From an uncultured virus (IMG/VR IMGVR_UViG_2576861234_000002) (taxonomy: Duplodnaviria; Heunggongvirae; Uroviricota; Caudoviricetes), in IMG/VR virus record IMGVR_UViG_2576861234_000002: DNA of 64,000 nucleotides; one strand, written 5' to 3'. The notes under the pieces are model-generated. The model was given only the letters and a program-made list of their open reading frames with translations, searched no databases and was not told where the DNA came from. The translations under genes and the position numbers were made by a program. Of this stretch, positions 19,080-22,540 are shown piece after piece (position 1 is the first letter of the stretch; each line of letters starts with the position of its first letter).

Positions 19080-19170
19080 AAATTATTCTCCTTTGATTTA
19101 TTTTGAAAGCCCCTATTCTGCTGAAACTGTTGCAGATTTTGAATTAACTGCTACTTCAACATTTTGGGGA

Positions 19171-19812
19171 TTAGCTGGGTAACGAACCTGCAGAATCCTC
19201 TGAATGATCTTCACTGTCCGTGTATCCAACGAATACTTTTTTGAAGAATTCTGCTTCTCCTTCTTTACCTTCATGATAACCGTATACAATACCTTGTGAC
19301 GTTCCATCAACATCAACTTTTCTATTCATCCAGTCACCTGTTAATTTTGTAGGTTCTGGGGCTTCTGCTTTTTCACCTCGTGTTTTAAATTCAATTGAAT
19401 CTAAACTAAAAGTACCTTTAAGTAAGGCTACATATACCGGCTGACCTGTTAAACCATCTTCCGATTCGCCAATTACTGTTACATACGGTGCTCTTGTATT
19501 CTCTCCTACCCAAGATGTACCATTTTTATCTTTAGTACGTCCAATAACTGTGTTTAAATCATCACTTGGAATATTGAAAATACTCATGTCAGACTTAACT
19601 TCATTAGTACCTTGTTTTTTCATCCATACACGTTTGTTAGATGCAAACATATCTACTAAATCTGGTGCTAAACCTGTGATATTTAGGTCAACTGTACCAC
19701 CTTTTTCATCTTCCCATGTCATGCGTTTAACTACTTTTGTTGCTTCTGGGTTAAAAACTCCAACGTATAATCTTTTAAAACCTACTTTATAAGAACCTTG
19801 TCCTTCTGCCAT
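19171..19812 (-). CDS. Major tail (tube) protein; probable +1 frameshift extension to 19113
   Basis: phi13-family major tail sequence; ends TTA CCC AGC TAA. Confidence 0.9.
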   Translation of the reverse strand: MAEGQGSYKVGFKRLYVGVFNPEATKVVKRMTWEDEKGGTVDLNITGLAPDLVDMFASNKRVWMKKQGTNEVKSDMSIFNIPSDDLNTVIGRTKDKNGTSWVGENTRAPYVTVIGESEDGLTGQPVYVALLKGTFSLDSIEFKTRGEKAEAPEPTKLTGDWMNRKVDVDGTSQGIVYGYHEGKEGEAEFFKKVFVGYTDSEDHSEDSAGSLPS

Positions 19813-19846
19813 TGCTTATTTCCTCCTTAAAAATTAAAAAGCACAC

Positions 19847-20242
19847 CTATTCGATGCGCTGATTTTTATAATATATATTTTTTGGTATGCCTTGATAACG
19901 TCTCGACATCACATAACGTTTAGTTTCTTCAAAATAAGCATCTAACTGACTAGATGCTTGAATTAAATTTTGTTGATATAACAGGTATCTTATTCGTTTT
20001 GTTATATCAATTGTTTTCTGATGATTTGAAGATTCTACATCTATTTGAATTAAATATTCTTCACTGAGATATTTATCAGACATATAGTCTGAAGGCAAAT
20101 CATAAACAGGTGTTATAACAACAAAAGGTTTGGAAGTTTCAGCATTTTCAGTGACTTTATAATAGTATATTCTAGAATTTATATATGTTTGGAGCTCTGC
20201 ATCAGATAATAAAATTCCTTTTACAGTGTTTAATATGTTCAT
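19847..20242 (-). CDS. Tail terminator/completion protein (DUF3168-like)
   Basis: Synteny; QIDV motif. Confidence 0.75.
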   Translation of the reverse strand: MNILNTVKGILLSDAELQTYINSRIYYYKVTENAETSKPFVVITPVYDLPSDYMSDKYLSEEYLIQIDVESSNHQKTIDITKRIRYLLYQQNLIQASSQLDAYFEETKRYVMSRRYQGIPKNIYYKNQRIE

Positions 20243-20644
20243 TTATCTGGCCAACTCCTTTTTTATAATTTCTCTATACTTCCGTTCACTAGCAGCTAAT
20301 GTTTTTGCAATAACTCCAAAACCTCTTGGTGTATATTTTTTACCATCTCTTGTATAACCATGTTCATTCAAGTGAATAATGTTTTTGCGATTCATAGGGC
20401 CTATCCATTCAATTAAAACAGCTCTTTCTTGACTTCCTACTTTTGTATAAGGTCTAGATTTAGTCATTTCTTCTATACTTGCACCCGTATCTTTAAAACT
20501 CTCGAATTCTTTCTTTAAAGCCTTTATAAAAAATTCGGATGCTTCATTTAAAGCTCTATCACTCTTAGCTTGCATTGCTTGTTTTCCGTATACCGATTCT
20601 AATTTCTTCAACACTTCAGGTATTCCTTTAATTTCTACACTCAT
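20243..20644 (-). CDS. HK97 gp10-like neck protein
   Basis: DTGA and EHG motifs; synteny. Confidence 0.75.
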   Translation of the reverse strand: MSVEIKGIPEVLKKLESVYGKQAMQAKSDRALNEASEFFIKALKKEFESFKDTGASIEEMTKSRPYTKVGSQERAVLIEWIGPMNRKNIIHLNEHGYTRDGKKYTPRGFGVIAKTLAASERKYREIIKKELAR

Positions 20645-20973
20645 TTTTCTGATAAAACCACTGTATTATAGCCTATATCTGGTGTATCAATTCTTATTTC
20701 TTCAATGTTGAATAATTTATCGGAATATGAACCTCTGTCAATTTTAACCAAGTGATTTGTTTGCGGTAGATATTCAGTTTTAGAAGACCTGACAATGATG
20801 GTTAATCCTGATTTTGATTCAGTCGCTTTTAAAACTTCTCTATCTTTCATAGAAGGATTATATATTTTACAAAAGCAACTATACAATTTCATTTTTTCCT
20901 CTTCATCTGGATATGGTCCTTTGTTTATATATTGAAAAAAATACGCGCGATCTTTAAATTCATTAAATTCCAT
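20641..20973 (-). CDS. Head closure / head-tail adaptor
   Basis: Synteny. Confidence 0.7.
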   Translation of the reverse strand: MEFNEFKDRAYFFQYINKGPYPDEEEKMKLYSCFCKIYNPSMKDREVLKATESKSGLTIIVRSSKTEYLPQTNHLVKIDRGSYSDKLFNIEEIRIDTPDIGYNTVVLSEK

Positions 20974-20984
20974 TTAAAAATCAC

Positions 20985-21263
20985 CTACCACTTTTTTAAT
21001 TTCAAAATCATTTTTTGCAATCCTTTTTCATTAAACACCTTGCTTTTAGATTGGTCATTTGAATACCCTCGACTTTCATAATCTCTTGCAATGATATATT
21101 TAATCGCTGTACAAAAAAGCGGGTATTCCAAGTCATCTTTGTCATAATCTGGAACCCCACTTAATAGTAATTCAGACTTAGCCGATTGAATGAGACCTTC
21201 AATTAAATCATTTTCAAAATTATAGTCAATTCTCAACCACAATTTAATTTCTTCTAAACTCAT
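20985..21263 (-). CDS. Head-tail connector (gp6-like)
   Basis: LEEIKLWLRID...DLIEGLI motif. Confidence 0.85.
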   Translation of the reverse strand: MSLEEIKLWLRIDYNFENDLIEGLIQSAKSELLLSGVPDYDKDDLEYPLFCTAIKYIIARDYESRGYSNDQSKSKVFNEKGLQKMILKLKKW

Positions 21264-21331
21264 TTCATCACCCCTATTCGGCTGATATTACAGCTGATTT
21301 AGCCTTAGCTGTTACATTAACCTTTTGGGGC

Positions 21332-22540
21332 TTAGCTGGGTAATGAACCTGTATTTTCTTTTGCTTTTGCAATTCTGAATGCACTGTCTAATGTACGTTG
21401 CTGATCATACCATGCAGTTAATACAAATAAATATTCGCCTTTTTTAACATCTTTATCAGTGTCATAAGTTGTGCCATCATAGTTAATTCCAAAATAGTTG
21501 AAATCTCCAACAATAGGTTTAACTGCTGCATCTGTAAATACTACTGGTTTGCCAAAGACTTTTTCTGCTGGTGTATCAAAGAAATTTGTTGTTCCATTTG
21601 AAAGAACACTAATAATTTTGACATAATCTGCATATCGCATGTAAATTGTTGCATTATCACGATAATCTTCATGTAAATCTGATAAAGCGTTAATAATAGC
21701 TTCATACATATCTGCTCCCTCAACTTCTTTAACAGAACCATTATAAAATGACATGTGTTCTAATCCAGATTTAGGACTTACTGCTAAAGCATCTTTACGC
21801 TCTTTAGCTGCTAAACCTGATTGTAGTGCGTTTTCTACCCAGTTTACTAAATCTACATCTGATCCATGAATTACAGTATCTGAAATTGCAGCAAATACTT
21901 TGAATTTATTAGTAGTGAACTTAACTGTATCACCTTTTAATTTTAATTCCTTAGCTGTTTCTACATCTGTAATGAAATCATCATCGTCTAAAGTATATGA
22001 AACTCTAGGAATCTCTAAACCTTTAATGTTAGTTAGACGAGCTTTTTCACGTAATTGGTTTTTAGCAAATGGTTCTGAAACAATTTCTTTAGAGAGTGTT
22101 TTTGGTAAGAGCTTATCACCACCTGAATCATTACCTGTTGGTAAAGCGTGTAATAAACGTTGTGCCTCCATTGAAGGTTTTTCAAATTCATTTGGTAAAA
22201 TCGCGTGACGATAAAACTCTGCCTTAGCTTTAACCATCTTCTCATTAGCACTTAAAGATTGATAAGCTTCTCCTTTGTCTTTAACTTTCGCTTTTTCTTT
22301 CTCTTCAATGTCTTGCACTTGTCTTTCAACAATGTTAAATCTTTGTTGTAAACCTGCTTTTTCTGTTTCTAGTTGTTTGATGTCTTCCATATCAATATTT
22401 GGATCTGTTGCTTTCTGACTCAATTCATCATTTTTATTTTTTAATTGTTGTCCAATCATACCTAAGGATTGTTTTAATTCATATAATGTCGGCATTTCAT
22501 TTCCTCCTAATAATTCATTGTCATTTTTAAAATTTCGCAT
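21332..22540 (-). CDS. Major capsid protein (HK97 fold with delta domain); probable +1 extension to 21274
   Basis: N-terminal coiled coil, GDF motif; true start may be MPTLYE near 22495; ends TTA CCC AGC TAA. Confidence 0.95.
   Translation of the reverse strand: MRNFKNDNELLGGNEMPTLYELKQSLGMIGQQLKNKNDELSQKATDPNIDMEDIKQLETEKAGLQQRFNIVERQVQDIEEKEKAKVKDKGEAYQSLSANEKMVKAKAEFYRHAILPNEFEKPSMEAQRLLHALPTGNDSGGDKLLPKTLSKEIVSEPFAKNQLREKARLTNIKGLEIPRVSYTLDDDDFITDVETAKELKLKGDTVKFTTNKFKVFAAISDTVIHGSDVDLVNWVENALQSGLAAKERKDALAVSPKSGLEHMSFYNGSVKEVEGADMYEAIINALSDLHEDYRDNATIYMRYADYVKIISVLSNGTTNFFDTPAEKVFGKPVVFTDAAVKPIVGDFNYFGINYDGTTYDTDKDVKKGEYLFVLTAWYDQQRTLDSAFRIAKAKENTGSLPS

Follow-up and report, generated by a model that had tools for sequence, protein, structure and literature searches.

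Two genes of a Staphylococcus aureus prophage, those of its major capsid protein and its tail tube protein, end in the same short sequence around a rare CCC codon, and each is followed in the +1 reading frame by one of two homologous 20-residue peptides (hereafter ‘tags’). The prophage is of the Triavirus type (phi12, 47, 42E, 3A, phiSLT, and Sa2 prophages) and is part of a 64,000-nucleotide stretch of DNA (hereafter ‘the window’) recorded as an uncultured virus in IMG/VR (IMGVR_UViG_2576861234_000002). The tags are probably the product of a programmed +1 frameshift and one half of a natural split FN3 domain, the other half being the N-terminal domain of a separately encoded 151-residue protein. 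Here, we call the half formed by FN3 strands A and B the ‘plug’ and the half that starts at strand C the ‘socket’.

Tags in the +1 frame of the capsid and tail tube genes

The capsid gene ends in GGT TCA TTA CCC AGC TAA (stop codon at 21332-21334) and the tube gene in GGT TCG TTA CCC AGC TAA (stop codon at 19171-19173), with 0-frame products ending in ...ENTGSLPS and ...DSAGSLPS, respectively. These carriers are non-homologous, the one being assigned to Phage_capsid and the other to Phage_TTP_1 in Pfam, and their shared GGT TCR TTA CCC AGC TAA ending, first pointed out in a reading of the window made from its letters alone (hereafter ‘the sequence-only reading’), can be read directly from the DNA. 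If the A after CCC is skipped, the capsid frame continues with AKPQKVNVTAKAKSAVISAE and the tube frame with ANPQNVEVAVNSKSATVSAE; each tag is followed by TAG, and each TAG by GGG. The homology of the two +1 peptides, also claimed in that reading, was corroborated by an independent hidden Markov model (HMM) of the plug, trained only on ten in-frame C-terminal plugs from other phages. Among 2334 stop-terminated six-frame peptides of the 64-kb window, the two tags rank first (tube, 22.2 bits) and second (capsid, 18.9 bits), the next peptide scoring 5.9 bits; with the iterated HMM, their scores are 36.7 and 28.9 bits, respectively.

The likely site of the shift is well delimited. Each of the two genes contains a single in-frame CCCA, and CCC itself is rare, accounting for six of 4726 codons in thirteen structural genes; two of these six are the penultimate codons of the capsid and tube genes. 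Beneath the rare CCC, the +1 frame offers another proline codon (TTA CCC AGC giving CCA). CCC is read by tRNA(Pro)UGG in Firmicutes, and no tRNA gene was found in the 64-kb window. The stretch shared by both frames contracts in relatives to 5-14 nucleotides (nt) around CCC (14 nt at the tube gene of one variant type, L043), which pins the putative shift site to this codon, and some relatives carry CCC TAG or CCC TAA, i.e. a stop directly after CCC.

The tag frame is conserved as coding sequence and is under purifying selection. Staphylococcus pseudintermedius phage DS12, the tube protein of which has 73% amino acid identity to that of the window, carries TTA CCC AAG TAA at both its capsid and its tube genes, followed by the +1 tags SKPQNVEVTVNSKSAVISAE and SNPQNVEVTANSKSAVISAE; these match the window tags in length and in their GAA TAG GGG ending and differ from them at many synonymous sites, including a change between TCA and AGT for serine. 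When sixteen +1-type tags are compared, taken from viral contigs as well as from the window and DS12, entropy by tag-frame codon position is 11.9, 12.5, and 24.4, the third position thus having twice the value of the others. Synonymous pairs account for 575 of 1653 differing codon pairs (35%) in the tag frame, vs 161 of 1661 (10%) and 111 of 1597 (7%) in the other two frames.

The same nucleotides are conserved as RNA structure. Each tag region is predicted to fold into a stem-loop that begins 7 nt 3' of CCC and combines an outer CCCC:GGGG stem with an inner stem of about 10 base pairs (bp). Folding z-scores are -3.89 for the tube tag (none of 200 shuffled sequences folding as well) and -3.37 for the capsid tag (one of 200), vs -0.01 (106 of 200) for the plug encoded in frame in the tail protein of phage SN8 and +0.53 (140 of 200) and +0.33 (120 of 200) for the in-frame plugs of phage 812 Gp155 and Gp156. 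In all Staphylococcus-type +1 tags, CCCC directly follows the 0-frame stop and GGGG the stop of the tag; two other +1 cases (L032 and L052) do not have this pair, and the in-frame plugs have neither element. In an alignment of sixteen sequences, the consensus structure comprises fourteen pairs, seven of them with compensatory changes; paired cells amount to 93.8%, vs 41-49% when the partner is slid, and the covariation score is 0.381 vs 0.05-0.10. On four of five measures, none of 500 shuffles reaches the observed value, and on the fifth (the count of pairs changed on both sides), 17 of 500 do so. A covariance model scores the two sites in the window at 89.1 and 81.7 bits and the next best at 14.2 bits, but both sites belonged to its training set and these high scores are therefore not independent evidence. 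An Rfam scan found no family at the stem-loops, its sole match being a sub-threshold chance match elsewhere. The GAA TAG GGG that closes both tags is shared because it is the 3' arm of the RNA stem; the sequence-only reading was right about its presence at both sites, but not in treating it as a feature of the peptides. Judged by sequence and predicted fold, CCC, spacer, and stem-loop make up the anatomy of a putative programmed frameshift site.

In public records (phage 3A; StauST398-2, NC_021323.1), the capsid and tube genes bear no slippage annotation, and the records examined for S. aureus phages, Kayvirus, and Enterococcus phages do not annotate the tags. A ‘hypothetical protein’ at 1331-1420 of StauST398-2 (NC_021323.1), in the tag region, was considered as an annotated +1 product and discarded, being a 29-residue antisense open reading frame (ORF).

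The 151-residue protein and its counterparts in other phages

The 151-residue protein is the homologue of phi12 gp38. Its C-terminal part is a Big_2 Ig-like domain (Pfam, 37.3 bits vs a cut-off of 22.8) with structural matches to 7quz (Z-score 14.7, root-mean-square deviation [rmsd] 1.2), T5 pb6 (Z 12.7), and the lambda gpV C-domain (Z 9.1). The N-terminal domain (N-domain) gave no Pfam fn3 match by itself and no solved structure in a sequence search. Modelled alone with AlphaFold2 from a 62-row alignment, the whole protein reaches a predicted local distance difference test score (pLDDT) of 95.8, and its N-domain is a five-strand partial FN3 (strands at residues 3-9, 12-19, and 42-47, together with some short strands). 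The would-be strand E, at residues 20-33, is not formed in the model of the protein alone. The top 50 structural matches of that model are Big_2 domains or two-domain chains, none of them a single FN3 domain matched to residues 1-63. The sequence-only reading had described this protein as beginning like an FN3 domain without its first strands, which agrees with the model; the complete fold that it had named as speaking against a split domain was not seen in the model, the N-domain without the tag being partial and its strand E unpaired.

A joint model was built by translating 18627-19178 with genetic code table 6, the three intervening stops being read as residues, so that a 13-residue spacer joined the tube tag to the protein in a single chain. 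In this model (pLDDT 94.2), the tag forms two strands (residues 5-11 and 16-21, pLDDT 89-95), strand E now forms (residues 55-60), and tag and N-domain together attain a predicted seven-strand FN3 sandwich (A, B, C, C', E, F, and G). Residues 1-96 of the predicted structure align with whole FN3 domains at Z 9.2-10.3, the matches including 2w1n (Z 10.3, rmsd 2.3, 84 residues aligned), 1k85 (Z 10.2, rmsd 2.0, 82 aligned in a chain of 88, 28% identity), 7jgu (Z 9.8, rmsd 2.1, 81 aligned in a chain of 90), and 6bt9 (Z 9.8, rmsd 2.4, 82 aligned). Two-domain targets are matched from 32-36 residues earlier with the tag than with the 151-residue protein alone. These models support the view that the tag corresponds to strands A and B of the N-domain, which itself starts at strand C, and with it the resemblance of the tag to FN3 strands A and B noted in the sequence-only reading.

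When the 66-residue N-domain served as phmmer query against the whole library, 83 proteins were matched. The domain begins at or before residue 20 in 57 of them; the remaining 26 are long proteins with an internal best match and, for the most part, several matched stretches. Where such multi-repeat homologues were inspected (P0029, P0031, P0056, and P0064), a segment resembling strands A and B immediately precedes the socket-like sequence. Other proteins begin with a socket and end in a plug (P0036, P0037, P0054, P0060, P0062, P0070, P0071, P0089, and P0104).

A motif scan of viral contigs with the back-translated pattern ES.KVDVP.F gave at least 120 loci and, after removal of two unrelated long ORFs and two ORFs without a start codon, 118 socket-first genes among the matches listed. 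A plug of at least 10 bits lies within 200 nt upstream of 113 of these 118 genes when the profile is iterated three times (control maximum with the iterated profile, 2.8 bits); the first-pass profile finds such plugs at 82 of 118, with none of 358 reverse-strand control peptides at 5 bits. The five genes without a plug are L013 and L085 (tandem sockets), L098, L099 (degenerate or with a short flank), and L111. In L013 and L085, two socket-first genes stand in tandem and the upstream one ends at strand G without a plug, so the plug of the second socket must lie elsewhere. Among distinct combinations of plug and frame, seventeen are +1 at CCC, nine are -1, and seven are in frame, 22 being unassigned owing to short flanks. 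Twenty-six representative carrier ORFs comprise five Phage_capsid proteins, five tail tube proteins (of two families), one Big_2 protein, and fifteen without a Pfam match. Across phages, socket genes have their own ribosome-binding site and start codon, and the spacers between plug and socket (33, 31, 30, 25, 18, 71, 61, 15, 8, 11...) are not multiples of three.

A tag paired with a truncated partner is conserved among phages that are unrelated to one another, in-frame forms included, and individual phages show how variously the plug is attached. The capsid gene of SN8 has a +1 site (CCC TCG TAA) and is directly followed by the single socket gene of that phage, which would also be the partner of the plug carried in frame by the tail protein. 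Enterococcus phage VP16 has a +1 site at its capsid gene (CCC TAG), with an 87-residue socket gene next to it, and Enterococcus phage IME197 a -1 site at its tube gene (G GGA AAG), again with a socket gene next. In Kayvirus 812 (Staphylococcus phage 812, KJ206560.1, 1822-3246), Gp155 and Gp156 carry plugs in frame, and Gp156 (socket, Big_2, and plug) and Gp157 (75 residues, socket only) follow them in turn as a plug-and-socket chain, with gaps of 13-14 nt between the genes. Scanned over their whole sequences, the window, VP16, SN8, and IME197 each contain exactly two plugs and one socket, one plug after the major capsid gene and one after the major tail gene; the plugs score at least 17.9 bits and the next best peptides at most 8.3 bits. 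VP16 has +1 sites and IME197 -1 sites at both genes, the capsid site of IME197 being GCG GGG GAG TAA with a 9-bp hairpin downstream. Plugs of one genome share the endings of their lineage (...ISAE, ...VSAE, or ...ISVE in Staphylococcus and ...IELS or ...IELT in Enterococcus). Eight -1 carriers (L012, L020, L021, L050, L064, L071, L072, and L102) have the site ...C GTC AAA ATA R (0 frame TCA AAA TAG/TAA) followed by a GCCCC...GGGGC hairpin, the inner stem of which covaries (GTGGG:CCCAC vs GTAGGT:ACCTAC). A search of genome contigs for related loci with the 151-residue protein returned two matches only, both to Big_2 alone, and neither plug nor socket was found in Listeria phages LP-101 (tube protein 37% identical) and PSA.

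These cases incline us, by a narrow balance, towards a portable tag-and-catcher grammar in Firmicute phages: a hairpin of about 20 residues (strands A and B), placed on any virion protein in frame or dosed by a +1 or -1 shift, would recruit five-strand socket proteins; proteins with both socket and plug would act as adaptors and form chains such as Gp155-Gp156-Gp157; and in siphophages one decoration protein would serve head and tail.

Proposed mechanism and its alternatives

We suggest that ribosomes translating the capsid or tube messenger RNA reach TTA-CCC-AGC-TAA, where the rare CCC and the stem-loop 7 nt further on would cause a fraction of them to re-pair peptidyl-tRNA(Pro) on CCA. After the shift, these ribosomes would append the 20 residues of the tag and terminate at TAG. 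As FN3 strands A and B, the tag would then complete in trans the beta-sandwich (A-B-E sheet) of the separately translated 151-residue protein, which starts at strand C, and because the plug would complete the socket in trans, one decoration protein could be bound, without a covalent link, to those head and tail subunits that bear the tag, its occupancy being set by the efficiency of frameshifting. The sequence-only reading had likewise suggested a natural split-domain system in which both tags dock one Ig decoration protein, and the computational tests all came out in its favour. The Big_2 domain would thereby be displayed on head and tail and may aid adsorption, a role proposed for other Ig-like phage domains. 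The shift, the binding of plug and socket, and the role of Big_2 in adsorption are what we infer. With the domain split in two, a single gene product may be able to serve both structures, and one might speculate that the split also prevents a bulky domain from interfering with the assembly of prohead and tube.

Protein data from phi12 bear on this mechanism. On gels, the capsid protein of phi12 gives a band at 29.5 kDa and another at 32.6 kDa, both without the N-terminal delta domain, and electrospray ionization mass spectrometry gave 30,374 Da (residues 129-402) and unassignable ‘minor peaks’ (PMC8569155). The +1 product adds 1,935 Da, taking the capsid protein of the window from 30,437 Da (0 frame) to 32,372 Da (+1); this calculated mass matches the upper phi12 band and is consistent with its being the frameshift product, although the match does not prove the identity of the band. 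The phi12 study reports gp38, a ‘minor tail protein’ of 16.0 kDa, at 96% peptide coverage in procapsid and tail preparations, and the strings ENTGSLPS and GSLPS were not found in the available supplementary text (PMC8569155).

Several observations weigh against a frameshifted plug and a socket completed in trans. For the capsid doublet, the phi12 authors propose a secondary cleavage site; their intact-mass table lists only the 0-frame capsid and tube proteins; and a word search of the main text found none of ‘frameshift’, ‘decoration’, and ‘Ig-like’, so no decoration is described there (PMC8569155). In the window, the codon after CCC is the sense codon AGC, with the stop one codon later, unlike the form known from Bacillus phage SPP1. 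Pfam fn3 (PF00041) is sub-threshold even with the tag (E-value 0.048, 14.3 bits vs a cut-off of 25), position 2 of its profile aligning to tag residue 3. The joint model is a single covalent chain made through a read-through spacer and speaks to compatibility, not affinity, and the confidence of AlphaFold2 is equally high for the 151-residue protein without the tag. Finally, the 118 loci include many near-identical copies from Triavirus, which brings the number of independent cases down to about 40-60 distinct plugs.

The confident model without the tag would also suit an arrangement in which the tags are made by a +1 shift and act alone or with some other partner, the 151-residue protein binding the tail in another way, and so would the naming of gp38 as a minor tail protein only in the phi12 study (PMC8569155). 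We consider this unlikely: plug and socket make up one FN3 domain in the single-chain model and are contiguous in unsplit homologues, the plug adjoins the socket in 113 of 118 genes among the matches listed, and each of the four scanned genomes pairs two plugs with one socket. Less likely still are tags that are untranslated relics of a continuous FN3-Big_2 extension, with only the RNA hairpin conserved for messenger RNA stability, processing, or translational coupling. The strong conservation of the RNA structure and the lack of any slippage annotation in the public records examined fit such relics; the codon-position signature and the synonymous excess in the tag frame argue against them, as do the in-frame occurrence of the same peptide in three proteins where the RNA is unstructured (the tail protein of SN8, and Gp155 and Gp156 of phage 812) and the presence of a capsid tag without any downstream FN3 remainder of which it could be the relic.

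A direct fusion of the tube tag to the 151-residue protein in cis, by stop read-through or ribosome hopping and after the manner of SPP1 gp17.1*, is suggested by the shared reading frame of the two in the window. We rejected it as extremely improbable, given the three stops between them (TAG, TAA, and TAA), the differing frames in DS12, the spacers with lengths not divisible by three, and the ribosome-binding sites and starts of the sockets themselves; moreover, the capsid tag is followed by a connector gene, and phi12 gp38 runs free at about 16-20 kDa (PMC8569155). A programmed +1 frameshift feeding a split FN3 domain thus remains the reading that we favour.

Genomic setting and relation to known systems

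The features of the window are collected in Table 1. The prophage extends approximately from an endolysin gene (2909-4363) to an integrase gene (46165-47370), with its structural genes on the minus strand. A 4.1-kb query around the tag genes matched 107 phage records, 104 of them at 95-99% identity and all from Staphylococcus; the other three, at 80-90%, are from Mammaliicoccus. The capsid gene product has nearly the same sequence as the 402-residue chain of the phi12 capsid protein in PDB 7RWZ (E-value 1.9e-263), and a sequence search with the tube protein found no solved structure.

Table 1. Features of the tag-bearing structural module and their positions in the window
Feature	Position	Strand	Basis or remark
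Terminase gene	24507-26207	minus	named by place in module
Portal gene	23264-24502	minus	named by place in module
Clp-type protease gene	22507-23292	minus	Pfam CLP_protease
Major capsid protein gene, 402 residues	21332-22540	minus	Pfam Phage_capsid, E-value 2.4e-15
Capsid +1 shift codon CCC (putative)	21338-21340	minus	sole in-frame CCCA; re-pairing on CCA would skip base 21337
Capsid tag (plug), AKPQKVNVTAKAKSAVISAE	21277-21336; TAG stop 21274-21276	minus	+1 frame
Capsid RNA stem-loop (predicted)	21271-21330	minus	outer CCCC:GGGG and inner stem of about 10 bp; minimum free energy -22.3 kcal/mol
Connector gene	20985-21263	minus	Pfam Phage_connect_1
Three small genes	between connector and tube genes		
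Tail tube (major tail) protein gene, 213 residues	19171-19812	minus	Pfam Phage_TTP_1, E-value 8.6e-14
Tube +1 shift codon CCC (putative)	19177-19179	minus	TTA CCC AGC TAA; sole in-frame CCCA
Tube tag (plug), ANPQNVEVAVNSKSATVSAE	19116-19175; TAG stop 19113-19115	minus	+1 frame
Tube RNA stem-loop (predicted)	19110-19169	minus	architecture as in capsid; minimum free energy -18.1 kcal/mol
Gene of 151-residue protein	18624-19079	minus	Pfam Big_2 at residues 67-140
Socket (FN3 from strand C on: C, C', E, F, G), residues 1-63	18891-19079	minus	structure models and homologues
Big_2 Ig-like domain, residues 64-151, and stop codon	18624-18890	minus	Pfam Big_2
Tail chaperone gene, 116 residues	18216-18566	minus	Pfam Phage_TAC_19
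2074-residue ORF, presumed tape measure	11802-18026	minus	size and position

The gene of the 151-residue protein gives way directly to a GC-rich inverted repeat and then a T run (18585-18620, minus strand; GGCGCAGTATATCTGCGTCTTTTTT), which look like an intrinsic terminator separating the putative decoration gene from that of the tail assembly chaperone. The chaperone gene is itself followed by a 52-residue ORF (18016-18566 together, minus strand), at the usual spot for a G/GT-type frameshift. Past the integrase gene, 47900-64000 is a second phage-like block with another CHAP/Amidase_3/SH3b endolysin gene (52022-53443) and several minus-strand ORFs of at least 600 residues; it may be a tandem prophage, and the scan of the window found neither plug nor socket in it.

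Frameshift extensions of capsid and tail proteins, as well as Ig-like decorations, are already known. In SPP1, a +1 shift at CCC_UAA adds an FN3 domain to a fraction of the tube subunits (gp17.1*, in a 3:1 ratio); the extension is dispensable and thought to be adhesive (PMC6316719). The window resembles this arrangement in the rare CCC at the end of the tube gene, the +1 move onto an overlapping proline codon, and the FN3 sequence appended. It differs in that SPP1 adds a whole 87-residue FN3 domain in cis, whereas the window would add only strands A and B (20 residues), the rest being a separate gene product; furthermore, the same tag is found at the capsid gene, and the stop lies one codon beyond CCC. 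In Listeria phage PSA, +1 shifts on a proline codon are described for both cps (CCC, a sense codon, and a 3' RNA structure) and tsh (CCC_UGA) (PMC5009743), and the window sites resemble the cps type, not the CCC_UAA type of SPP1. The PSA extensions (L133, 5125-5290 and 7285-7363) resemble neither one another nor the plug and have no FN3 hairpin, that of tsh being a 24-residue acidic tail and that of cps about 47 residues with a helix-rich ...VVELKEELDKRGITYNTSDLK... segment. PSA has non-homologous extensions and no socket gene, whereas the window tags are homologous and accompanied by a socket. The sequence-only reading had cited both phages for +1 shifts at CCC codons near stops that usually add whole Ig domains, which holds for SPP1 with its FN3 domain but not for PSA, the extensions of which are neither Ig domains nor plugs.

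As in the lambda gpV C-domain, T5 pb6, T4 Hoc, and T5 pb10, a Big_2 or Ig-like domain would be displayed on the virion. In those proteins, the Ig domains are cis-fused or borne on a dedicated capsid-binding domain; the anchor proposed here, by contrast, is the completion of a split domain. Incomplete Ig-like folds completed by the strand or strands of another polypeptide, with a short tag and a catcher, are familiar from chaperone-usher donor-strand complementation, SpyTag/SpyCatcher, and FN3 fragment complementation. Unlike in these systems, two strands (a hairpin) would here be donated between virion proteins, with no covalent bond implied and with a tag that arises from recoding. In the open full-text literature, we found no description of an FN3 domain split between a carrier and a decoration protein, with its tag dosed onto head and tail alike, or of a +1 shift in Triavirus.

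The proposed mechanism offers an alternative explanation for the phi12 capsid protein doublet and, if true, would provide natural orthogonal tag/catcher pairs for phage display and virion engineering. It would constitute a new way of attaching decoration proteins, in which the anchor is the completion of a split Ig-like domain instead of a binding domain or a cis fusion, and a new use of programmed frameshifting, which would dose a docking tag instead of a whole domain. The phages concerned are S. aureus phi12, phiSLT, 47, 3A, and Sa2 prophages, Kayvirus therapy phages, and Enterococcus phages.

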